From an uncultured Kiritimatiellota bacterium (GTDB lineage: Bacteria > Verrucomicrobiota > Kiritimatiellia > RFP12 > DVOR01), in NCBI GenBank assembly GCA_944391065.1, contig CALXSH010000003.1, positions 7,871 through 71,870 on the forward strand: 64,000 bases of DNA, read 5' to 3'. Below the pieces are notes generated by a model. It had not been told where the DNA came from. It saw nothing but the letters and a program-made list of their open reading frames with translations, and searched no databases. Shown piece after piece: positions 2,846 through 64,000 of this stretch; the first letter of the stretch is position 1; each line of letters starts with the position of its first letter. Position numbers and translations under genes: made by a program.

Positions 2846-3753
2846 TGCTGCGGACGGTCCTGCTGGTGGCGGCGTTTGCGACGGGCTGGTTCTGCCCGTC
2901 GCTTGCCTTATTGAAGCCGCTGATGCCGTGGTGCCTGGGGTACATGCTGACGGTGGTCTTCATGCGGACGGAATTTTCCCGCGCCTCCTTCTCGCCCCGT
3001 CAGGCGCTGGTCATTGCGGTCAATATCGCGATGGCGGTGGCGGTGTGGGGCGGAATGCTGCTGTGCGGGGTGCCGGAACGCTTTGCCCAGGCGGCCTTTT
3101 TCACGGCAATCACGCCGACGGCGAGCGCGGCGCCGGTGATTGTCTCGCTGCTGGGCGGCAGCATCGGGTTTGCGTCTTTCGGCTTTGTGCTGAGCGCGCT
3201 GGCGGTCAGCGCGGCGCTGCCGCTGCTGGTGCCGGTGGTGCTGCATCAGTCGGCCTGGGGAATGATGCCGCTGATTCTGATGCGCGTGGGGTGGGTTGTC
3301 TTTCTGCCGATGCTTCTCGGGGGACTGCTGCGGCGCCTTCTCGGCGAACGGGCCGCGCGCATCGGCAAACGCCTGACGGGCTCGACGCTCTATACCTGGA
3401 TTGCGCTCGTGGCCATCATTGCGGCGTCGGCCTCGGATTTTCTGCGGACGCACGCGGCGGAGTATCCGGTCGGCGACGTGCTTTGGGTGCTGCTGATCGA
3501 CTTTGTGCTGTGCGTGGTCTGCTTTGCCGTCGGGGCCCTGCTCGGTTATCCCGGCTACATCCGGGAATGCTCGCAGCTGCTGGGGCAGAAAAACACGTCG
3601 TACACGACCTATCTGGCCTTTGCCAGCGGCAATCCTTTCGCCGCGCTGGGGCCGGCCTTCTATGTCTTCTTTCACAATACGTGGAACGGTCTGCAGCTGA
3701 TTTTCCATAAGGAGCAGGACGATGTGCCCAAGAAAACCGAAGCGCACCGTTGA
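2845..3753 (+). CDS. Polytopic membrane transporter-like protein (about 9-10 TM), family uncertain
   Basis: 302 aa, very hydrophobic, multiple TM helices with GxxxG-like motifs. No soluble domain. Confidence 0.5.
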   Translation: MLRTVLLVAAFATGWFCPSLALLKPLMPWCLGYMLTVVFMRTEFSRASFSPRQALVIAVNIAMAVAVWGGMLLCGVPERFAQAAFFTAITPTASAAPVIVSLLGGSIGFASFGFVLSALAVSAALPLLVPVVLHQSAWGMMPLILMRVGWVVFLPMLLGGLLRRLLGERAARIGKRLTGSTLYTWIALVAIIAASASDFLRTHAAEYPVGDVLWVLLIDFVLCVVCFAVGALLGYPGYIRECSQLLGQKNTSYTTYLAFASGNPFAALGPAFYVFFHNTWNGLQLIFHKEQDDVPKKTEAHR

Positions 3754-4414
3754 GGATTACGACGCCATCCATGACGCGCTGGCTGCGGCCTTCGCGCAGG
3801 TCCGCGCGCCGATCATGGATCTGATTGCGGCCCAGACGCACGATCCCTACCGCATTCTCGTGGGGACCATCCTCTCGGCCCGTACCAAGGACGGCACCAC
3901 TGCCGAGGCCCTCGGCCGTCTTTTCCCCGCCGCGCCGGATATGGATGCCCTGGAACGCCTCAGCGAGGAGGAGATTGCCGGGCTAATCTTCCCCGTCGGC
4001 TTTTACCGCGCCAAGGCCCGCCATCTCAGGGCGTTGCCCGGGGCGGTGCGGACGAAGTTCGGCGGTACGATTCCCCATACCGTGGAGGAGCTGGTCGAAT
4101 TGCCCGGGGTTGGGCGCAAGACGGCCAATCTGGTCGTGGCGCTGGCTTTCGGGCTGCCGGCTATCTGCGTCGACACCCATGTCCATCGGATCAACAACCG
4201 CCTCGGCATCGTCAGGACCAAGACGCCGGCGGAGACCGAGGCGGCGCTCCGCCGCTGTCTCCCCGAGCGGCTCTGGATCCCGTGGAACTCGATTTTCGTC
4301 TCTTTCGGCCAGACCCGCTGCAAGCCGATCGGCCCGCAGTGCGACGGCTGCCCCGTGCGCGCCTGGTGCCTTGCGCCCCGCAAACCGAAGACTCCCGGGG
4401 CCGGCCGCGGCTGA
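3722..4414 (+). CDS. nth: Endonuclease III (HhH-GPD DNA glycosylase with [4Fe-4S] cluster)
   Basis: HhH motif ELVELPGVGRKTANLVVALAFG, catalytic region ICVDTHVHRINNRLG, C-terminal 4-Cys cluster CKPIGPQCDGCPVRAWC. Start overlaps the upstream gene by 32 nt; start choice is tentative. Confidence 0.85.
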   Translation: MCPRKPKRTVEDYDAIHDALAAAFAQVRAPIMDLIAAQTHDPYRILVGTILSARTKDGTTAEALGRLFPAAPDMDALERLSEEEIAGLIFPVGFYRAKARHLRALPGAVRTKFGGTIPHTVEELVELPGVGRKTANLVVALAFGLPAICVDTHVHRINNRLGIVRTKTPAETEAALRRCLPERLWIPWNSIFVSFGQTRCKPIGPQCDGCPVRAWCLAPRKPKTPGAGRG

Positions 4415-22210: not shown

Positions 22211-23518
22211 TCAGCGGGCAGCCTTTCCGAATCCCGAGAGGATGAAGCCGCAGAGGCGCGAGCAGAGTTTGGGCTGGAAATATTCGCCCATGCGCGTCAG
22301 CCGGAAGACGCCGTCCGTGCCGCGTGTCCAGAGGCCGGCCGCAGTCCAGTTTTCGCCCAGCGCGCCGAAATCGGTTTCGGGGAAGTCGGCGGGATTCAGG
22401 AAGCTGCGCTCGAGCTGATCGGCGAGGCGGCCCTTCAGCGCCAGGAAAGGCGGGCGCGGCATCACCTGGGCCAACGGTTTGCGTCCGGCCTCGACGGCTT
22501 CGCGGTAGGCCTCCGTGTCGGCGGTCTGCATGAAGCCCCAGGAGCCGAGGAAGCCGCCGGCACCGCCGCCGAAGGGGAGAATTTCGGCGCCGGTCTTGGT
22601 CCAGTGGTTGTAGCGGTTGCGTTCGTTCCCGTTGCGCCGCCAGTGCGTGCAGGAGAGCTGTTCCCAGCCGTGCGCGGCCAGCCAGTCGGAGGCCCCGGCG
22701 TGGCGGCGGATGCGCTCCTCCTCGCTCCAGCCGGAGCCCTCGCGTTCCATTCGGCGGGCCAGGGGCAGGCCGGGGAAGAGTTTCAGCGAGTAGAGATCCA
22801 CGCCGTCGAGGGGGGACGCCTCGGCGACGGTCCGGATGTTCTCCTCCATCCACTCCTCCTGGGTCTGCCCCGGAAGCCCATAAATCAGATCGGCCACCAG
22901 CGCCGTCTCTCCGCCCGCAATCTCACGGACGCGGAAGAGGCGCTCCAGCAGCTCTTCGCGGGACTGACGGCGGCCGAGCGAACGCCGCAGGTCGGTCTGG
23001 AAACTCTGGATGCCAAAGGAAAAGCGGTTTGCACCGGCCTCGCAGCAGGCCCGGACGCGTTCGTCGTCGAAGGCATAGAGGCGTCCTTCGACCGTGAATT
23101 CGACGTCGGGCGTAAGATTGAAGTGCGCGTAAATGAAGCGAATCAGGCGCCCAAGCGAACGGGCGGAGAGCGCCGTCGGCGTGCCGCCGCCGAAATACAC
23201 CACCTCAATCGGGGCCGTGAAGACGCCGCGGGAAACCTCGCGCTCCATCTCCCGGATCAGCAGATCGGTGTAAGACTCCAGCGCCTCTTCCGTCGCAGCC
23301 TGCCGGTAAAACCCGCAGAACGAACAGCGGCTGATGCAGAACGGCACGTGAACATACAGCATCTGGCGGACTCCCGGCGTCTGCCGGGCTTCGGCCCAGA
23401 CCGTCTGCGCGTCCGGCGTGCCGGATGATCCGCCCATATCGCCGTGCGGCGGCGTCGCTGCGGATGAGAGGGCAGCGATAACCTCTTCCCTGGTACCGGG
23501 CAACAGAAACGGATTCAT
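22211..23518 (-). CDS. HemN-family radical SAM protein (oxygen-independent coproporphyrinogen-III oxidase HemN / heme chaperone HemW / ChuW-like; subfamily unresolved)
   Basis: Start MNPFLLPG at 23518. Radical SAM cluster motif YVHVPFCISRCSFCGF. GGGTP SAM-binding motif (VVYFGGGTPTAL). HemN_C-like C-terminal domain. About 435 aa. Confidence 0.8.
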   Translation of the reverse strand: MNPFLLPGTREEVIAALSSAATPPHGDMGGSSGTPDAQTVWAEARQTPGVRQMLYVHVPFCISRCSFCGFYRQAATEEALESYTDLLIREMEREVSRGVFTAPIEVVYFGGGTPTALSARSLGRLIRFIYAHFNLTPDVEFTVEGRLYAFDDERVRACCEAGANRFSFGIQSFQTDLRRSLGRRQSREELLERLFRVREIAGGETALVADLIYGLPGQTQEEWMEENIRTVAEASPLDGVDLYSLKLFPGLPLARRMEREGSGWSEEERIRRHAGASDWLAAHGWEQLSCTHWRRNGNERNRYNHWTKTGAEILPFGGGAGGFLGSWGFMQTADTEAYREAVEAGRKPLAQVMPRPPFLALKGRLADQLERSFLNPADFPETDFGALGENWTAAGLWTRGTDGVFRLTRMGEYFQPKLCSRLCGFILSGFGKAAR

Positions 23519-23885
23519 ACGATTCTCGGTTTGCGTTGTCCGATCGCGCGGGTCCCCATGAAGCGGCACCGAGGTGCCTGTTTCATCCGTTTGACCGAAT
23601 AAAAAACGGCGCTATATTAGACGAGGCTAATGGTAAAGTCAAGAATTATTTTCACGAACTAATACTTTCTTCCTTTTCCGCTTCGACCGGCTGCCGCCCG
23701 CCCCTCCGCTCTTCCGGAATAGGGGATGCCTTCAGGCCGCATGAGCGTCAGCGGCCCCAAAGGGCAAGGAGCCCCCGGCTTCCGGCTTCGTGTTGCCTGC
23801 CCCGCGCGAAGGACGGACTGAGATTCCGCTTTACTCCGACCGCGGCTCTCCCCACCCGTGACATCGGCACAAGGCCTAGTCGACC

Positions 23886-23977
23886 TCTTGGGCTATAGCC
23901 GTAGCGCTTCTTGGGCTATAGCCGTAGCGCTTCTTGGGCTATAGCCGTAGCATCTCTTGGGCTATAGCCGTAGCGGT
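23886..23977. repeat. Tandem array of four 23-bp direct repeats, each carrying the palindrome GGCTATAGCC
   Basis: Units TCTTGGGCTATAGCCGTAGCGCT at 23886, 23909, 23932 and 23955. Palindromes at 23891, 23914, 23937 and 23960, exactly 23 bp apart. The last two units have slightly diverged spacers. Confidence 0.9.
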
Positions 23978-24091
23978 CGGACTTTGCCCAACACGATGTT
24001 GGGGTTGGCCCGGGATTTGGTTCGTTTTGGGCAGCATCCTTGTCCGTCACGGGTGCCTGCGCGCCGTTGCTTCCCCCGGCGGCGCCGTATC

Positions 24092-24100
24092 TGCTATAAT
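24092..24100 (+). promoter_or_regulatory. Extended -10 sigma70-like promoter element (TGcTATAAT) upstream of the DUF3127 gene
   Basis: TGCTATAAT at 24092-24100, about 35 nt upstream of the ATG at 24135. No good -35 is present, consistent with an extended -10 promoter. Confidence 0.4.
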
Positions 24101-24134: not shown

Positions 24135-24497
24135 ATGAGCAAATCGTACGAATTGGACGGCACGCTGAAGGAAATCATGGAGACCAGGACCTTCGAGAAG
24201 AGCGGATTCACGAAGCGTGAATTCGTCGTGACCGACGAGGATGACCGCTATCCGCAGCACATCAAGTTTAACGTGACGCGCAACAACTGCGCCCTTCTGG
24301 ACCGCTTTGCCGTCGGCGACCGCATCCGCGTGACCTTCTCCATCCGCGGCAATCAGTGGCAGGACCGCTATTTTGTCGACCTGAACGCCTTCAAGCTCGA
24401 AAAGCTCGATGTCGACGGGTCCACCAGCGAGCCGATTCCGCAGCCTGACGAGACCTTTGTCGCCGATACCATCAACGATGAAGACATGCCCTTCTGA
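24135..24497 (+). CDS. DUF3127 domain protein with acidic C-terminal tail ending DEDMPF
   Basis: ATG at 24135, in frame with ORF 23934-24497. 120 aa. The core (FTKREFVVTDEDDRYPQHIKFNVTRNNCALLDRFAVGDRIRVTFSIRGNQWQDRYF) matches the DUF3127 family as I recall it. The C-terminal 30 aa are acidic and end in ...INDEDMPF. Confidence 0.6.
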   Translation: MSKSYELDGTLKEIMETRTFEKSGFTKREFVVTDEDDRYPQHIKFNVTRNNCALLDRFAVGDRIRVTFSIRGNQWQDRYFVDLNAFKLEKLDVDGSTSEPIPQPDETFVADTINDEDMPF

Positions 24498-43305: not shown

Positions 43306-44110
43306 ACCAGACCCTCCAGAGGAAGAGCCCTGCCGCCGGTGCGGACGGCACGCGTGCCGTCCGCACCGTCCCGGGCGAGAGCAGGTCGGCCACCGATTCG
43401 GGCTTCTCCTGACCCGCGCCGACGCGCAGCAGGAAGCCCACCATCGACCGGACCATTTTATAAAGGAAACCGCTCCCCTGTACGCGGAAGCAGATCTGCG
43501 AACCCCGCTTCGTCACCGTGAAGGCATAAATCTCCCGCACCGTGCTCTCGATTGGACGGTTCGGATTCGCCGAAAAGGCCGCGAAGTCATGCTTTCCCAC
43601 GAAGTATTGCATTGCCCGGCGCATCGCCTCAACGTCGAGAGGCCGGACGATGTGGGCGTTGTAGAGCCGCTTGTCCGGCGGCAGGATGCGCGTATTCCAG
43701 ACGTAGTAGCGGTACTCTTTGCCGTGCGCGCTGAACCGCGCGTGGAAATCCTGACTTACTTCGCGGCAGGAAAGAATGCGGATGTCCGGCGGCAGACGGC
43801 CGTTGGCGTTGAGCGCCATCTTAAGGCTTCGCTCGGTCATCCGCGTCACCAGGTCCACATGGAAGACCTGACCCTTCGCGTGGACGCCGTGGTCGGTGCG
43901 GCCGCTGCTGTGGATGTCGACCTTCGGCGCCTTGACGATGCCCGCCAGGACCTGTTCGATCGTCTCCTGGATGCTCGTGTAGCCCGGCTGGGTCTGCCAG
44001 CCGAAATAGGCCGTGCCGTCATAGGCGCAGACCATGCGGAACCGCCGCGGCGCCAAAGCCGGTCGCTGCGTGTCTGGGGTGGGGGAAGTCGGAGAGGGGG
44101 TGTCTGCCAT
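43298..44110 (-). CDS. truA: tRNA pseudouridine(38-40) synthase TruA
   Basis: MVCAYDGTAYFGWQTQ...SSGRTDHGVHAKGQVFHVD, with the catalytic GRTD Asp motif. About 245-270 aa depending on start. Confidence 0.85.
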   Translation of the reverse strand: MADTPSPTSPTPDTQRPALAPRRFRMVCAYDGTAYFGWQTQPGYTSIQETIEQVLAGIVKAPKVDIHSSGRTDHGVHAKGQVFHVDLVTRMTERSLKMALNANGRLPPDIRILSCREVSQDFHARFSAHGKEYRYYVWNTRILPPDKRLYNAHIVRPLDVEAMRRAMQYFVGKHDFAAFSANPNRPIESTVREIYAFTVTKRGSQICFRVQGSGFLYKMVRSMVGFLLRVGAGQEKPESVADLLSPGTVRTARVPSAPAAGLFLWRVWYA

Positions 44111-57161: not shown

Positions 57162-59765
57162 TTACTCGGCCCCGTCGCTCCCGGCCGCGCTCCCGTCGGC
57201 TTCGGCCACGGTTTCCGCGTCGGCCCCGGCAGCGGCCCCGGCAGCGGCCCCTTCGGCGGTCTCGGCGTCTTCCTCCGCGGGGGCGATGGAGAAGGATGCC
57301 ATGGTGACGCCCTCCTGCAGTCGGATGAAGTTGACGCCCGCTGCGGTGCGGCCGAGGACGGAGACCTCCGCGACGCGGGTGCGGACGAGAAGCCCGGCGG
57401 TGGAGAGCAGGACAAGCGTCTCGTCGCCGCGGACGGTGGCGATGCCGATGAGTTTGCCGTTGCGCTCGTTGTCGCGCGGCATGCCGATTACGCCGGAGGA
57501 GCCGCGGTGGGTGACGCGGAAGTCACCGAAGGCGGTACGCTTGCCGCGGCCGTTCTCGGAGACGAAGAGGAGCGCGCTGTCGGCGGCCTCGACGGCCATG
57601 CCGCAGACGCGGTCAGCGTCGGACTTCAGGCGCATGCCGCAGACGCCCATGGCGTTGCGTCCGACACGGCGGACCTCGTCGATGAGGAAGGCATTGACCA
57701 GACCGTCGCGGGAGGCCATGAAGACCTTGTCGCCCGGCTGGGTAAGCATGACGCGAACGATGGCATTGCCCTCGGCGATATTGATGGCGATGAGGCCGGA
57801 ACGGTTGACGTTGCGGTAATCGGAGAGCGCCGTACGTTTAATCGTGCCGTCGGTCAGGGCAAAGGTGATGTCGCGGTCCTCGTCAAAGGAGCGGATTGCG
57901 AGCAATTCGACGATGTGCTCCTCCTTGGGCAGGCCGGGCAGGATGTTGCTGACGTGGGTGCCGGCCGCGGTGCGGCGGCACTCGGCGATGGCGAAGGTGC
58001 GCGCGGAGAAAACGCGGCCGCGGTCGGTGAAGAAGAGGAGCGTATCGTGCGTCATCGGGACGTAGAGACGCTCGATGAAGTCCTCCTCCTTGAGCAGGAC
58101 GCCGCGCTTGCCGCGTCCGCCGCGGCGCTGAGCCTCGTACTCGGAGAGCGAGGTGCGCTTGAGATAACCGCGGTGGGAGAGGGTGATGACGCAGGGTTCG
58201 TCGGCGATAAGATCCTCAATGCCGACATCGGCCGCGTCGGATTCGAGCTGGGTGCGGCGGTCGCCTTCCTTGGTGTAGGCGGCCTTGAGCCCCTCGAGGT
58301 CGTCTTTGATGAGACCGAAGACGCGGGCGGGATTGGCCAGGATGTCGCGCAGGTCGGCGATAGAGGCGCGAAGGGCGGTCTGCTCGTCGAGCAGTTTGCC
58401 GCGTTCCAGACCGGTCAACTGGCGCAGGCGCATCTCGAGGATGGCGGAGACCTGGGCGTCGGAGAAGCCGAAGCGCCCGCAGAGGCGCGCCTTGGCCTCG
58501 TCGTTGTTGGCCGAGTCACGGATGATGTGGATGACCTCGTCGAGATTATCCTGGGCGATGAGGAGGCCGTCGACAATGTGGAGGCGCTCCTCGGCGCGGC
58601 GGAGGTCAAACTTCGCGCGGCGGGTGTGGACCTCAAAGCGGTGGTCGACGTAGCAGCGGAAGAAATCGCGCAGCGTCATGCGGCGCGGACGGCCGTGGTC
58701 AAGCGCGATCATGTTCGCGCCGAAGGTGGACTGCAGCTCGGTGTGCTTGTAGAGCTGATTGAGAATGATTTCGGCGGGATTCTTCGCGTTCTGCTTAATC
58801 TCGATGACGACGCGGATGCCGTCGCGCTTGGAGGATTCGTCGCGGATGTCGGCGATGCCCTCGATTACGCCCTCCTTGACCAGGTCGGCCATGTGGGTGA
58901 CCATGACGGCCTTGTTGACCATGTACGGGATGGAGGTGATGATGATGGCCTCGCGGCGCCCCGGGGCGGCGGGCTCAATCGTCGCCTCGCCGCGGACGGT
59001 CACCGAACCGCGGCCGGTTCGGTACATGGCGGCAATGCCGGCCAGACCGCAGATCTTGGCGCCGGTGGGGAAGTCGGGACCTTTGACGAAGCGCATGAGA
59101 TCGTCAATGGTGGCCTCGGGGTGGTCGACAAAATAAATGAGGCCGTCGCAGAGCTCGCGCAGATTGTGCGGGGGGATGTTGGTGGCCATGCCGACGGCAA
59201 TGCCCTGGGAGCCGTTGAGCAGCAGGTTGGGCAGCTTGCTCGGAAGCACCTTGGGCTCGCGCTCTGTGCCGTCGTAGTTCGGCACGAAGTCGACCGTGTC
59301 CTTCTCGATGTCGGCCATCATCTCGCCGGCGATTTTCGCCATGCGCGACTCGGTGTAACGCATGGCCGCGGCGCCGTCGCCGTCGATGGTGCCGAAGTTG
59401 CCGTGGCCGTCGACCAACGGGACGCGCAGGCTGAACCACTGCGCCATGCGCACCAGCGTGTCGTAGATGGAAAAGTCGCCGTGGGGATGGTATTTACCCA
59501 TGACGTCGCCGACGATGCGCGCCGACTTGCGGTAGGGCGAAGTGTAAAAATTCTTGTTCTCGTGCATCGTGTAGAGCACACGTCGGTGCACGGGCTTGAA
59601 ACCGTCGCGGGCGTCGGGAAGGGCGCGCGCCACAATGACGCTCATGGAGTAGTCGATGTAAGAGTTCTTCATCTCCTCTTCGACATCGATTGAGGCAAGG
59701 CGGGTGTCGGCGGCCGGCGCAAGGGCGGTCTCGGCGGCCTGGGGCACGGATGTTTCGTCGTCCAT
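57162..59765 (-). CDS. gyrA: DNA gyrase subunit A
   Basis: Start MDDETSVPQ at 59765. [38 protein letters not shown]. Active-site Tyr region ([10 protein letters not shown]). C-terminal beta-pinwheel repeats and acidic tail. TATACT -10-like element upstream. Confidence 0.95.
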
Positions 59766-60005
59766 CGGGGATCCTTTCAAAGGTTCATCAAGTATAGCAT
59801 AATCCGCCCCCTTACGGGCACTTCCCTCCTCGCCGCCTGGCCGCGCAGCGTCCATCGTGACGCGTCATCCATCCCGACGCACAGCCTGCCGGCAGGGGTA
59901 GGACCTCGCAGACCGGCAACCCCTCCCCGCGCTCCTGGCCCTCGGCGCGTTTCCTCCCGGACATCAGTGCCATCCGACCGCGACACCGCCCAGAATCGAC
60001 ATCTG

Positions 60006-60086
60006 ACCCTATAGGGTAACCTCACACCACCCTATAGGGTGATACTGTATCACCCTATAGGGTCATCAGTCATCACCCTATAGGGT
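60006..60086. repeat. Array of four ACCCTATAGGGT palindromes at exact 23-bp phasing (spacers not conserved)
   Basis: Palindromes at 60006, 60029, 60052 and 60075 (copies 2-4 extend to the 14-bp CACCCTATAGGGTG/A). Lies between the gyrA upstream region and the DUF1796 gene, at the high-GC / low-GC boundary. Confidence 0.9.
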
Positions 60087-60408
60087 AAGCTATCCGGTAT
60101 TGCCCTCACCCGTGTCCGGACATCCCCGCTTTTGGGCCAGGACCCGCCCCAGTCCCGCTCCTGTCCCACCGTATTCTTTCCCGCCGCCCCATCACCGTCG
60201 GCCTCGGCGAAGCCACCAAGGCCCGCAAACTCCCCCTGCCGGCCCTCCTACGACGCACCCAAAGACGCGGTACCCCCTCTCGGCAGTGCGTCATCTCATG
60301 TACACGCTTCACGTATGCCTCATGTTTGCATATGGCTTTCCGCATATGGTACAGTGTGCCCAAAGTTACGGCGATGAAATGCGTGATATTGAATGGAGCG
60401 GAAGCACA

Positions 60409-61184
60409 TGAGTGAGACCCGGATATATGATTGTATTGTGCCACTGGGATGCAATTGCTCTTCGGCGCTGCAGTTGCGGTTTCGAAAACTCCGTCAGTGC
60501 TCTCTGCCGTTCGATTGGCTGTACTATCAGGGCGATTGTCTTCCTGAGACTTATGTCGGAATGATTGAATCTCACTTTGCGGCTTGGCTCGAGAGAAAGA
60601 ATCTTGAGGTCAAGGATACGCGCAAAGAGCCGGGAAGCGGTCGCCATTCCACTGTGACGGATCTGCAGTGCGGTATTACATTTCTTCATGATTTTCTGAC
60701 TTATCCGTTGACGGATACGGAGTTGGAGACTGTCCGCGCAAAATATCAGCGGCGGATCGACCGTCTTTACGCACTGTGCGGGCATGCCGACAGGATTCTC
60801 TTTGTGATTACCGGTACAGCCGGGCAACTGAATCGTGAGAGACTCCTTGAGACTCGGCGGCGCCTGTCTGCCCTCTTCCCGCAGGCGGCCATTGATATCT
60901 TTGCGGTTATCACAGAGGCTTCGACCTTTGAAATGGTGGAGAGCCCCGAGAATGGCCTTTACCTTTCGCTGACGACGAGGAAACGGTCAACGTATGATTT
61001 GCACCATAGGCCCTGGGAGTGGTCGTGGCTGGATTCGGTCTGTTTGTCCGATGCAATGCGGGACATTCTCGGGCATGCGCCGCAGAAGCCTGCGGGCTTG
61101 TTGGACAGGTGGATTTACAAGCTTTATAAACACCTGAAAAAGACTCTGATCCGACGCGGCAGACTCCCACCGGAGTGGGACTGA
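60409..61184 (+). CDS. DUF1796-family putative papain-like cysteine peptidase
   Basis: ATG at 60409 with GGAG RBS. N-terminal motif IVPLGCNCSSALQLRF...SLPFDWLYY typical of DUF1796. GC about 52%, far below flanking DNA. Confidence 0.55.
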
Positions 61185-61599
61185 TATTTCGGGGCCCCCG
61201 TAAAAGTCCGTGGCAGTCAACCGAGCAAGACAGACGCTAGAAAGCAATCATGAAGGGGTAAATGTGTGTCTGGAAAAGGACGCTGGGTGACAGAAGGGGC
61301 GCGCAGCCCCTCAGGTCTGGTTGCAGTGTAGCTTCAGTCCAAGTGTCTAGTTTTGATATATACAAGAAGTCTAGTTTGAAATATACACGACAGACATTTA
61401 GGTCGATGGCCCCAGCCCCTCCCGTCTTTTGCTATACTCCGTCCGCACGCAGCGCACCACCCAGGAGTGAAATGAAAGTCCGTAATAGGGCCATTGAAGG
61501 CTTCAAGATCCCCGATTCTCGATTTTCTCGCGAAGGGCGCGGATACTCTACCTATAATGAGGTCTGCAACCGCACTGCAGGCACCTGCGCAACCATTGA

Positions 61600-61900
61600 C
61601 CGGGCGGCGGGAGCCTCTTCGCCAAGGGTGGCATCCGAGGATTTTGTTGGCAGGCCGCCCCGCACACGCAGGGCAAGCCCGTCCACATCATCCGCGGAGC
61701 CGTCTGGGACGTCGCCGTCGATATCCGTAGAGGTCCTTCACCTCTCAGCCACTCTGTCGCGGCCAAACTCTCCGCCGACAATGGTCTTTGTCTCGACGCC
61801 CTTGTGCCAGATCCCTGTTGGTGAGTCCTCGGTGTTCCGCGGAACCTTACCGAGAAGGCCCCCGTCATCCTTTCCTCGCCGACATTGAACCTTGGGGAGG
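61600..61900 (+). pseudogene. rmlC: Remnant of dTDP-4-dehydrorhamnose 3,5-epimerase gene (rmlC): internally deleted and frameshifted
   Basis: In-frame translation gives ...FAKGGIRGFCWQAAPHTQGKPVHIIRGAVWDVAVDIRRGPSP...KLSADNG. This matches RmlC blocks (ERGFF...; PPFAQxKLVRxVRGAxFDVAVDxRRGSPT; ELSAENK) but lacks about 35 aa between them, has an in-frame stop at 61597, and loses frame after about 61800. Confidence 0.5.
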
Positions 61901-61930
61901 ACCTTCAACCACGCTCTTTGAGGACCAATA

Positions 61931-62947
61931 ATGATTGCTTTCACGAATAGTCCGCCGCTGGCCACCTACATTCTCTTGGCCTATCGTCAAGCAGACTTGG
62001 TCGGTAAGGCCATTGAATCTGCCTTGGCTCAGACCTATCCCAATCTCGAGATTATCATCTCCGACGACTGCTCTCCTGATGATACTTGGGAGGTTATTCA
62101 GAAGACCGTCGAGGGTTACAAGGGACCTCATAAGATCATCCTTAACCGTACTGAGCACAACGGCGGTCTCGTCGGTCACATAAACGCCCTCTTTGCCATG
62201 GCTCACGGCGAGGTCTTCATCACTGCCGGCGGCGATGACATCGCCTATCCCGATCGCGTCGCCCGAGTCATGGAAGTCTTCCGAGAACATCCCGAGGCCT
62301 CCATGGTCGGGTCGGAATATGACACCATCGACGCTCAGGGAAACCGCGGCCTTCCCAAGAACCATCGTAATACCGGCTGCGTCGTCCGTTACCCCTATGA
62401 CTCGCTCGAGGCCCTCTACGACACCTTTCCCTGCTTCTGCGGCGCCGTGCTCGCCTACCGCCGCGACGTCTTCGATCGGTTCGGGCCCTTGGATCCCGCC
62501 AGTTGGGCCGAAGACATCACGCTTGGTTTTCGCGCTTCCCTCCTCGGGGAGATTTGGTGGATTGAATCACCTCTCGTCCACTATCGCATACAGGGCGGTG
62601 TCTCCACGTCTACCGTTCGGTGCATCGCTCCGGTCGTCCGCTGTGCCGTCGGGACGCTGGCGATTTATCGCCAGCTGGAGGCCGACGTCCGTCTGCTTGG
62701 ACGGGATGAACGTTATGCCGCATTGCTAGCCCGGATTTCCGATGATATCGTCAGATACACGAACAACGTCCGTGCCCTGACGGCCCCGTGGCCCTGGCCC
62801 TCGATTCCTGCCGGGATCGCTTATTACCGCCATGGCAACGAGTCCCGTGGCATGCGGCGGCGAGCGCTTCTGATGTCGCTGGTGCCCCGGTTTCTCCGTC
62901 CCGGCTTCTTCCGGCTGCTTCGCTTCCGTATGGCTCGGCGGGCGTGA
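61931..62947 (+). CDS. Glycosyltransferase family 2 protein
   Basis: N-terminal GT-A fold with acidic motifs IIISDDCSPDDT and ITAGGDDIAYPDR. 338 aa. Arg-rich C-terminal tail. Confidence 0.75.
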   Translation: MIAFTNSPPLATYILLAYRQADLVGKAIESALAQTYPNLEIIISDDCSPDDTWEVIQKTVEGYKGPHKIILNRTEHNGGLVGHINALFAMAHGEVFITAGGDDIAYPDRVARVMEVFREHPEASMVGSEYDTIDAQGNRGLPKNHRNTGCVVRYPYDSLEALYDTFPCFCGAVLAYRRDVFDRFGPLDPASWAEDITLGFRASLLGEIWWIESPLVHYRIQGGVSTSTVRCIAPVVRCAVGTLAIYRQLEADVRLLGRDERYAALLARISDDIVRYTNNVRALTAPWPWPSIPAGIAYYRHGNESRGMRRRALLMSLVPRFLRPGFFRLLRFRMARRA

Positions 62948-63057
62948 TTCTCGCCGGGCGGGTTCCCTATAGAGAAATCATAAGATACGCCACAGAAGGG
63001 GCCTGTGGCGTGTGCCGACGGACCGATGCTTCAGACGTCTTCTCAGAGGCACTCCGC

Positions 63058-63639
63058 TCAGAGCGCGGGCCCTTTGCGGGGAAGCCGACAGATAACCCAA
63101 AGCCCGAAGAGCTTCAGCGTCGCGCAACCGTTGCCAAAGCGCCATACGAAGCGCCGACGTCTGTCAAACGGCGACAAATCCTTCAGTGTAACTACCTGTC
63201 CAGCTCCATCGTCGAAGCGTCTATTCCGTCCGGCAGCGACCGCATCCCGGAATCCCTTGATGGACGCATCAAGATGGTTCCAGCCCAGTGAATCCTTCAG
63301 CGACCCCAAATCGTACTCCCACCACTGAGTTGCTTCAATCTCGCGGATCTGATCCGCTGAACGCATTCGAATCAGTCTGGCCGGAATTCCTCCGGCGATG
63401 GCACAGGGCGGGACATCTTTGGTGACGACGGCACCGGCCCCGATTATGGCCCCGCGCCCGACCGTTATACCGCCCATGATAATCACGCGACTTCCAATCC
63501 AGACATCGTGACCGAGAATGACAGGTCCATCACAGGTCGTGTGGGGGCGCAATGCAGCTTTGGTCTTCCAGTATGGCAGATGGGTTATAGGGGACGTCGT
63601 CAGACAAGTCAGGGGATATATCAGCGGCGAGAATGTCAT
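63058..63639 (-). pseudogene. Hexapeptide-repeat xenobiotic acetyltransferase (Vat/CatB-like), apparently N-terminally degraded
   Basis: The ORF carries the LbH core and XAT C-terminal motif (GHDVWIGSRVIIMGGITVGRGAIIGAGAVVTKDVPPCAIAGGIPARLIR...WWEYDL). The expected about 110-aa N-terminal half is absent. An upstream alternate frame (about 63640-63710) encodes a short CIAPP fragment resembling the XAT FCSIGPG block, implying a deletion plus frameshift. Confidence 0.45.
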
Positions 63640-63924
63640 CCTCGCGTTCGGAAAATGTCAATGCGCCTACGCTCAGAGGCGTAGACGCATTTCGGATGGC
63701 GAGTGACGGATGTGAGAATTGCTAAAGAACGCTGAGGAGGGGGCGTTGCTGTGGAGAGAGGAATGTGCTATCGTTGCGCTGTCATGCGAAGATGCGGGCT
63801 GTGCGTTCGGTAATGCTCAGTCTTTGCTGGGTAATGGATAGCGCACCGATTGAATCGAAGGTGCATGAGAAATGCGATGCGCCCTTGTGGGCAGAGCAAT
63901 TTTCACGGAAAGGAGCCTGAGACA

Positions 63925-64000
63925 ATGGCGGTGGAGAGAACACGAGGCGTTGCGATCGAACCCATCGGAAAGCCCTATGGCAAGACGGTCGGTGTGGCGA
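63925..64000 (+). CDS. Hypothetical protein, 5' fragment (continues beyond window)
   Basis: AAGGAG RBS followed by ATG at 63925 (MAVERTRGVAIEPIGKPYGKTVGVA...). Confidence 0.25.
   Translation, partial: MAVERTRGVAIEPIGKPYGKTVGVA

Follow-up and report, generated by a model that had tools for sequence, protein, structure and literature searches.

A 64-kb stretch of DNA from an uncultured Kiritimatiellota bacterium (hereafter the window) carries two arrays of short palindromes phased at 23 bp, array A upstream of the gyrase gene gyrA and array B in another intergenic gap. In relatives, the palindrome of array A recurs in the same register beside a gene for a protein that joins an HU core to an immunoglobulin-like domain (HU+Ig), paralogs of this gene have arrays of their own, and further arrays are scattered between genes. 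The reading that we favour by a small measure is that array A, and probably array B, are orphan copies of a lineage-wide class of cis-elements made of three to seven short palindromes with a strict 23-bp (rarely 22-bp) centre-to-centre period. Judged from sequence comparison, a slightly better than even case can be made that the window arrays would be bound by homodimeric HU+Ig proteins encoded elsewhere in the genome. The candidate binders belong to Pfam family HU-HIG (PF18291), or combine HU-DNA_bdg (PF14848) with DUF4469 (PF14734). Besides the window, we examined an extra 10 kb of the same 88.5-kb ENA metagenome scaffold.

Phased palindromes and their association with HU+Ig genes

The four palindromes that the initial annotation had reported in array A are real, and each step from one start to the next is exactly 23 bp (Table 1). 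Their length had been given as 12-14 bp; all four are 12-bp palindromes, and the 14-bp form CACCCTATAGGGTG is confined to copy 2. Palindromes are identical at 48/48 positions (100%), whereas the three 11-bp spacers (aacctcacacc, gatactgtatc and catcagtcatc) show a pairwise identity of 39%, confirming that the spacers are unconserved. Tandem Repeats Finder described the array with period 23, 3.8 copies and 70% matches. No further copy of ACCCTATAGGGT was found in the window at up to 2 mismatches. The chance expectation is 0.56, and none of 100 dinucleotide-preserving shuffles reached four copies. Of nine CTATAG sites in the window, arrays A and B contain eight (1.5 expected).

Conservation between strains pointed the same way. 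In a sequence with a 99%-identical GyrA (L285), all four palindromes are kept, with changes at 0/48 palindrome, 2/33 spacer and 23/416 flank positions; the chance of no palindrome change at the flank rate is 0.066. One of the substitutions breaks the palindromic spacer GATACTGTATC of the 35-bp palindrome formed by units 2 and 3. Both palindrome and phase are thus maintained as the spacers drift, in keeping with the earlier proposal that selection acts on the two together.

The second CTATAG array noted 36 kb away is also real and has four units, ending at 23975. Tandem Repeats Finder gave it period 23, 3.9 copies and 94% matches, and this conservation of whole units indicates recent expansion. 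Array B therefore provides what can be said for a neutral, functionless tandem duplication: units 94% identical are typical of recent slippage, and copy number differs among loci in relatives. We give this explanation next to no credence. It is already very unlikely for array A, with its invariant palindromes and diverged spacers, and this architecture turns up independently, with other palindromes, in many genomes.

Relatives with a gyrA 75% identical (L302, L303 and L304) carry seven units of TACCC(C)TAT(A/G)GGGTA at 23 bp by an HU-HIG gene, P0123. The palindrome is the window's own (ACCCTATAGGGT, within seven TACCCTATAGGGTA units), and the array ends ~35 bp before a TGCTATAAT motif and ~100 bp before the gene start. 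The same genomes encode a paralog, P0124 (69% identical to P0123), which has seven units of a different palindrome, TACCCCATGGGGTA, again with a period of exactly 23 bp. The upstream regions of both genes can be aligned in register, each unit with its counterpart, and in both the last array unit abuts the -35 region. This alignment suggests a joint duplication of gene and array followed by concerted change of the units, as expected when a protein is paired with its own site. Upstream of a third paralog, on a sequence first retrieved for its gyrA region (L290), stand four copies of CCCATATGGG at 23 bp, and a fourth (P0122; L300) is accompanied by 22/44-bp direct repeats. Over ~110 kb of sequence from Kiritimatiellae relatives, an adjoining array was found at 4/4 HU+Ig genes, compared with at most ~12 of ~106 other genes (estimated hypergeometric P ~3e-4). 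The neighbours of P0123 (L302 1-5671) are of defence-island type, namely GmrSD, a phospholipase D-type (PLD) nuclease, an FtsK-gamma protein, a leucine-rich repeat (LRR) protein and a WYL regulator.

Arrays had also been collected by scanning genomes, one for each GTDB species, with the pattern CTATAG-N17-CTATAG-N17-CTATAG. As this pattern imposes the 23-bp spacing, the scan is biased by design, and we did not accept from it alone that CTATAG units at 23 bp are general across phyla; in viral controls, CTATAG repeats had a period of 23 at 8 loci, of 22 at 57 and of 24 at 96. Starting from the genes instead, we found an adjoining 22-23-bp phased array at 9/15 HU+Ig genes from Kiritimatiellota, Bacteroidota and Spirochaetota. 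The period was 23 in 8/9 of these arrays, establishing the 23-bp preference independently of the scan pattern. In a plasmid collection, all four genes combining HU-DNA_bdg (PF14848) with DUF4469 were followed by a 23-bp array that starts 5-130 bp beyond the stop codon (Treponema saccharophilum, Fulvitalea axinellae and two genes of Parabacteroides distasonis). The HU-HIG sample comprised eight matches, of which seven were retrieved. Among these, a P. distasonis ortholog of the HU-HIG gene on the Bacteroidales contig L078 is preceded by 3-4 units with a CACGTG core and a 23-bp period; direct or inverted repeats of 20-24 bp accompany three shorter paralogs, and nothing obvious was seen beside 3/7. 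Short HU-HIG paralogs (L294, L295 and L298; Bacteroides and Parabacteroides) lie in a recurring cluster of a DUF3987 or BT4734-family primase-like gene, a divergent DUF4248 gene, the HU gene, a 'smalltalk' small protein and an N-acetylmuramoyl-L-alanine amidase. This cluster may be a mobile or phage-derived module.

The converse approach started from the arrays. Annotation of array neighbours had revealed CTATAG arrays directly upstream of orthologous HU-HIG (PF18291) genes in two Bacteroidales sequences (L078 and L020). Profile hidden Markov models (HMMs) built from both HU+Ig subfamilies then identified HU+Ig genes directly beside CTATAG arrays at L003, L039, L062, L067, L083 and L099. With a 2-kb contig (L119), one of only two metagenome matches to the window's motif pair, the array-first test yielded nine further gene-array pairs. 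L119 carries ACCCTATAGGGT arrays 115-225 bp downstream of an HU-DNA_bdg+DUF4469 gene. Two genomes combine a home locus with others: in Bacteroidales bin41, one palindrome occurs at an HU+Ig gene (L020) and at an unrelated locus (L098), and in Treponema Co191P3bin16, one palindrome occurs at an HU+Ig gene (L067) and at three unrelated loci (L032, L077 and L079). This is the situation proposed for the window. A search of viral contigs for HU-HIG genes found none.

The repeat unit of bin41, GACTCACTATAGTGAGA (L020 1442-1580; L098 6474-6610), is one base off the T7 class III promoter core GACTCACTATAGGGAGA. We rejected a T7-type promoter, since the units are tandem palindromes and show no association with phage RNA polymerases, and judged the likeness a coincidence of the CTATAG-centred palindrome.

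Dispersal of related arrays in sister genomes

Proteins of the window are 60-89% identical to those of two Kiritimatiellaeota metagenome-assembled genomes (MAGs), with gene order partly common, and homologues of its GyrA carry the annotation Kiritimatiellia or Candidatus Spyradenecus. In two sister MAGs, the CTATAG pattern scan found related 23-bp arrays at at least 42 loci (bin80) and at least 11 loci (bin27); only 2 arrays lie within the 74 kb available from the source genome. At the centre of the MAG element stand 3-7 CTATAG-core units (GAGACCCTATAGTGGTCC and CAACCACTATAGTGGTCG), and its flanks consist of degenerate units in the same 23-bp register (ACCCTTAAGGGT and AAAGGGGCCTTT). All of these arrays are intergenic and they occur in both orientations. 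With a crude gene caller based on G+C content at third codon positions, 11 were placed between divergent, 7 between convergent and 24 between tandem genes, and the element ran in the same direction as its flanking genes in 13 cases and in the opposite direction in 11. No preference for promoters, terminators or 3' ends was detected. The absence of strand bias favours a function in double-stranded DNA.

Orthologous junctions differ in whether an array is present. One bin27 array lies between two genes that almost abut in the window, and bin80 has an array between DUF3127 and prmC where the window instead has array B upstream of DUF3127. In another part of bin80 (L006, compared with window 52.7-57.1 kb), a metallophosphoesterase and ABC-F block is inverted and gyrA is absent from that place; a 23-bp array stands at the rearrangement junction.

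The initial annotation had set array A apart from repetitive extragenic palindromes (REPs), while holding that dozens of 23-bp intergenic units in both orientations would indicate such an element. Units of this kind are what the sister MAGs contain, at 53 or more loci, and the exclusion is not supported. We argue that, given this dispersal, a trans-acting protein with many scattered sites is a better picture than a local operator, and that protein binding is not thereby refuted.

The main rival is that the arrays are selfish or structural extragenic repeats of the kind of REPs and bacterial interspersed mosaic elements (BIMEs), and that any activity of theirs would depend on hairpins of mRNA or single-stranded DNA (termination, stabilisation of RNA or recognition by a REP-associated tyrosine transposase, RAYT), with the HU+Ig link being secondary. 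Strictly intergenic loci by the dozen in all gene-orientation classes, presence or absence at orthologous junctions, the same composite element at two loci of one relative (L291), species-specific palindromes as in REPs, and good folding as single strands (RNA z = -8.0) all agree with it. We nevertheless consider it rather unlikely. The units are loop-less palindromes of 12-16 bp with a CTATAG or CTTAAG centre and stems of 5-6 bp, without a GTAG-type head; their 23-bp register is strict despite differing spacers, which is not seen in REP clusters; there is no bias for 3' ends or for the transcribed strand; and no transposase adjoins any array examined (a statement on array neighbours only). 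The repeated HU+Ig adjacency in three phyla and the in-register, paralog-specific arrays would also be left unexplained. REP-like selfish spread is at the same time compatible with binding by HU+Ig proteins, since the RIP/RIB elements of Escherichia coli are BIMEs with sites for integration host factor (IHF).

Other candidates were rejected. Rfam gave 0 matches at gathering score in the window, and at 18 related loci only an unrelated small RNA and a tRNA, away from the arrays. An array of RNA or single-stranded DNA hairpins was set aside, strong folding being trivial for identical palindromes and strand bias being absent. A CRISPR array is at odds with a whole period of 23 bp (12-bp repeat plus 11-bp spacer), four units and no cas genes. 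The arrays of Lysobacterales and other Gammaproteobacteria (L004, L005, L014, L040, L058, L061, L068, L094, L105 and others), which have 4-21 copies of a 23-bp variable-number tandem repeat, GCAGATTGTCTATAGCCAGAATG, adjoining VOC (glyoxalase-like) and ACT-domain genes, represent one orthologous locus and were not counted in the class. A glyoxalase gene beside an array at L029 is unrelated to these VOC genes, and the gene between two inverted arrays at L029, considered as a transposase, encodes an LRR protein.

Genomic setting of arrays A and B

Table 1. Arrays of the window, their palindrome units and the flanking features
Feature	Position	Strand	Description
Array A	60006..60086	none	4x ACCCTATAGGGT, exact 23-bp period, diverged 11-bp spacers
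Palindrome unit 1 (ACCCTATAGGGT)	60006..60017	none	exact match
Palindrome unit 2	60029..60040	none	14-bp form CACCCTATAGGGTG at 60028-60041
Palindrome unit 3	60052..60063	none	exact match
Palindrome unit 4	60075..60086	none	exact match
Perfect 35-bp palindrome	60029..60063	none	units 2 and 3 with palindromic spacer GATACTGTATC
gyrA	57162..59765	-	Pfam DNA_topoisoIV and DNA_gyraseA_C; exact product on ENA scaffold ONAT22-1 scaffold_126
Putative gyrA extended -10 (TGCTATACT)	59791..59799	-	read from sequence
DUF1796 gene	60393..61184	+	first gene of lower-GC polysaccharide-biosynthesis island
Array B	23886..23975	none	3.9 copies of TCTTGGGCTATAGCCGTAGCGCT, palindrome GGCTATAGCC, 23-bp period
Radical-SAM gene	22211..23569	-	flanks array B
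DUF3127-like gene	24136..24497	+	downstream of array B; L084 ortholog is Pfam DUF3127

Array A lies, as first described, in the divergent gap between gyrA and the low-GC DUF1796 gene. The gap is 627 bp long; the array begins 241 bp upstream of the gyrA start codon (59765) and ends 307 bp upstream of the DUF1796 gene, so that the region once referred to as downstream of gyrA is in fact upstream of it. Relative to the putative extended -10 of gyrA, array A would sit at about -205 to -290. Comparable TG(C/G)TATA(A/C)T motifs occur ~30 bp ahead of the gyrA ATG in L285, L286, L287 and L291. On the other side, the array is ~276 bp or more from a -10-like motif of the DUF1796 gene, if that promoter is correctly placed. 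Array B likewise occupies a divergent gap, between the radical-SAM and DUF3127-like genes. A TGCTATAAT -10-like motif at ~24091-24099 precedes the latter, and by this inferred promoter position the array would stand at about -130 to -220. Promoter and terminator scans of the window gave no overlap with either array.

These positions bear on the idea of a co-operative operator for a dimeric protein. One part of it gains support, since the palindrome and 23-bp phase of the window recur at the HU+Ig gene P0123 and a paralog-specific array at P0124. A classical operator of a local repressor is another matter: both arrays lie away from putative core promoters (at least 200 bp in the case of array A), no regulator gene adjoins them, and no local cognate regulator is encoded in the window. 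Arrays A and B do belong to the class as we delimit it, being intergenic with at least three palindromes at 22-23 bp (four units each), and the palindrome of array A stands beside an HU+Ig gene in a relative (P0123) and on contig L119.

The sharp boundary in GC content at array A is real, with a fall from 0.64-0.68 to 0.54-0.60 at 60 kb, and is accounted for by the adjoining polysaccharide-biosynthesis island, which makes up the low-GC stretch from DUF1796 to rplU-rpmA. The island (window 60393-64000 and L282 1-13232; GC 0.54-0.60) encodes DUF1796, a family 2 glycosyltransferase (GT2), a hexapeptide acyltransferase, a polysaccharide deacetylase, a pyruvyl transferase, DegT and FdtA, and its gene content varies between samples (L283 and L284). 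Further along the same scaffold, beyond the window (L282 3960-4015), ~25 consecutive G come after a (GT)n/(GGT)n tract; misassembly or a tract prone to slippage could explain them. Elsewhere in the window, a perfect 32-bp palindrome (CGGTGCGGACGGCACG/CGTGCCGTCCGCACCG) lies at 43337-43368, at the junction of two same-strand open reading frames (ORFs).

A further candidate explanation is an iteron origin, a centromere-like partition site or the scar of a plasmid or phage integration at the edge of the low-GC island, at whose GC boundary array A lies. Four to seven repeats at 22-23 bp are classical iteron geometry. The same 12-mer, in the form of TTAACCCTATAGGGTAAAGATTT repeats at 23 bp, occurs on an unrelated low-GC contig (L120 10880-11080) between a winged helix-turn-helix (HTH_36) Rep-like gene and a DnaA box, TTATCCACA, beyond which comes a UvrD-like helicase gene; an AT-rich unwinding element is present as well, and this part of L120 makes an iteron-like origin. 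A phage family in IMG/VR (L129, L137, L139, L182 and ~16 more) has 4-5 copies of the CTATAG palindrome ..GTATATCTATAGATCTACG.. with a 22-bp period, an array that looks like an origin or iteron array. For the window, however, we regard these explanations as very improbable. Neither array has a rep or par gene, an integrase, a DnaA box, an AT-rich unwinding element or a tRNA nearby; the low-GC region is a polysaccharide-biosynthesis cluster that ends at rplU-rpmA; iterons are direct repeats and the window repeats are palindromic; and two arrays occur in 64 kb, with dozens per genome in relatives. The iteron, partition-site and integration-scar proposals for array A accordingly find no support.

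A comparison of the gyrA region in relatives, which the initial annotation had suggested, gave a divided answer: array A is kept in L285, and species with a GyrA 75-80% identical lack a ACCCTATAGGGT array upstream of gyrA. Two of these have other arrays there, with four units of AAACCCGTACGGGTTT at 22 bp in L291/L292 and four units of CAAAGGGCGTAGGCTTTTG at 22 bp in L287. In L286, which is the nearest of the other species (GyrA 80% identical), gyrA at 4001 is directly preceded by a truncated ORF resembling HU-DNA_bdg/DUF4469 (3178-3732, + strand; HMM E 5e-15). It lacks ~70 N-terminal residues, public annotation places the gene on the other strand instead, and GAGGCGTGAGG-type repeats with an inverted copy of them come after it. 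That arrays stand upstream of gyrA in L287 and L291 as well as in the window, and the truncated ORF in L286, is suggestive only (P ~0.1). Other four-unit palindrome arrays at 22-23 bp in Kiritimatiellae relatives are built from CAAAGGGCGTAGGCTTTTG, AAACCCGTACGGGTTT, GGATAGACGTACGTCTATCC and TTCATATATATGAA, two of them upstream of gyrA (L287 3785-3868; L291 9744-9834, 20178-20270 and 6490-6577; L288 2004-2094). Long (CG/CA)n tracts flank the L291 array, forming a composite that is found at two loci.

HU+Ig proteins as candidate binders and comparison with known systems

In the HU+Ig proteins, an Ig-like beta sandwich follows the HU core, whose arm residues are conserved. The best solved match of an AlphaFold2 model is 4FMR (BVU_2165), an HU+Ig protein of Bacteroides vulgatus. 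Burroughs et al. 2017 (PMC5499826) described the HU-HIG clade from Bacteroidetes as rapidly diversified, with many paralogs and no operon partners; associated DNA repeats are not mentioned there. In a literature search covering the motifs, HU-HIG, DUF4469, BVU_2165 and 23-bp repeats, only this paper was relevant, and no description of an association between HU+Ig genes and palindrome arrays was found. The array class and its probable partnership with HU+Ig proteins therefore appear to be undescribed.

If HU+Ig proteins bind the arrays, one two-fold-symmetric dimer would occupy each palindrome, with its GC-rich arms and flexible TATA, CATG or ATAT centre. The fixed 23-bp register would bring neighbouring dimers into contact, plausibly through their Ig-like domains, and 4-7 dimers could assemble into a short filament or superhelix of protein and DNA. 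Each paralog would have a home array beside its own gene, for autoregulation or as a loading site, and further copies scattered in intergenic DNA, like the IHF sites on RIP/RIB BIMEs of E. coli. For array A, ~200-350 bp from the gyrA and DUF1796 promoters, a role would likely be architectural, such as constraining or insulating supercoiling, or modulating promoters over a long range. The distance of the arrays from putative core promoters favours such roles over promoter occlusion, which is unlikely at that range.

Several observations weigh against this reading. Searches of the window and of the extra 10 kb of scaffold found no HU+Ig gene or remnant. L120 shares the 12-mer and the 23-bp spacing in an iteron-like setting, so sequence identity alone does not fix the binder. 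Classical HU and IHF footprints span ~35 bp, longer than the 23-bp period. Within arrays, the spacing from half-site to centre shifts by 1 nt (ACCC and ACCCC arms), which is odd for a rigid dimer, and the arrays lie upstream of the gene in one HU+Ig subfamily and downstream in the other, a misfit with a simple autoregulatory operator. The AlphaFold2 model has a moderate confidence score (pLDDT 63). In 4FMR, the Ig domain partly fills and narrows the DNA-binding cleft, and HU-HIG proteins were predicted to be unlikely as sequence-specific transcription factors (PMC5499826).

The association of genes and arrays is moreover a correlation, and another factor could bind the arrays and regulate the HU+Ig genes. 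In this form the arrays would be operators for a different transcription factor, for example a phage-type HTH repressor, and the HU+Ig genes would be members of its regulon rather than the source of the binder. Phage-type HTH repressor operators such as lambda OR/OL are spaced 23-24 bp, and palindromes of 12-16 bp at a spacing of somewhat over two helical turns resemble them; the position of the last P0123 and P0124 units against the -35 region would fit as well, as would the structural doubt on DNA binding by an Ig-fused HU (PMC5499826). We find it distinctly unlikely all the same. A separate co-evolving regulator would be required for each paralog-specific palindrome, and the adjoining gene is the simplest partner; no regulator gene is consistently nearby; the arrays of the DUF4469 subfamily, downstream of their genes, are not in the position of promoter operators; and the window arrays are at least 200 bp from putative core promoters.

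A broader and more tentative proposal, which we regard as possible rather than probable, is that HU+Ig proteins and 23-bp arrays form an unrecognised protein-site system across Bacteroidota, Kiritimatiellota and Spirochaetota. Each paralog would have its own palindrome, a home array and extra intergenic loci, including the one upstream of gyrA, and the resulting filaments would organise or insulate DNA or mark self DNA in conflict. If true, this would overturn the published prediction of no sequence specificity for the HU-HIG family. It would also explain why repeats of this class are scattered between genes in several phyla, bring in a new type of nucleoid-associated protein with sequence specificity, and offer natural orthogonal protein-site pairs. 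The HU-HIG/DUF4469 proteins are a large, fast-evolving group, multi-copy in gut Bacteroidota and found here also in Kiritimatiellae and Treponema, and the arrays supply candidate paralog-specific sites of defined geometry (palindrome plus 23-bp register) for them. In annotation, such arrays should not be confused with CRISPR-like arrays, iterons or REP elements.

Among known systems, the arrays share with E. coli RIP/RIB and REP/BIME elements that they are dispersed, strictly extragenic palindrome clusters in tens of copies, in both orientations and with species-specific sequences; with RIP/RIB, they would also share a target for the HU/IHF superfamily. Unlike REP/BIME elements, they have short loop-less units in a strict 23-bp register, no GTAG-head hairpin, no RAYT seen and no 3'-end or strand bias, and unlike RIP/RIB, they would be bound by HU+Ig homodimers whose genes have home arrays next to them. 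The lambda operators OR1-3 and OL1-3 (17-bp palindromes, 23-24 bp centre to centre) are also palindromic sites at ~23-bp spacing, with the cooperative binding of dimers that is proposed here, and, as would hold for the HU-HIG subfamily, are located at the binder's own promoter. The arrays differ from them in a putative binder with an HU rather than HTH fold, in 4-7 units instead of 3, in many orphan copies far from promoters and, in the DUF4469 subfamily, in a location downstream of the gene.

With iterons (R6K, 7x22 bp; pPS10, 4x22 bp; RK2, 17-mers at 22-23 bp), the arrays have in common 4-12 tandem units about two helical turns apart. As with centromeres (F sopC downstream of sopB, R1 parC upstream of parMR, pSK41 parC of 4x20 bp), they lie beside the gene of the (putative) binder, on either side, and like both they may serve to assemble nucleoprotein structures of higher order. 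In iterons, Rep monomers bind asymmetric direct repeats, whereas the window arrays are chromosomal, belong to a many-copy class and are without rep/par genes, DnaA boxes or an unwinding element. MatP/matS, Noc/NBS, SlmA/SBS and ParB/parS resemble the proposed system in that a trans-acting dimer, putative here, has tens of palindromic chromosomal sites untied to promoters; those sites are single palindromes, not phased arrays, and the protein folds differ. Finally, the candidate binders are members of the HU-HIG clade (PMC5499826; 4FMR), with an HU core, a C-terminal Ig-like domain, many rapidly diverging paralogs and no operon partners, and they extend the clade as described by members in Kiritimatiellae and Treponema and by a phased palindrome array beside the gene.

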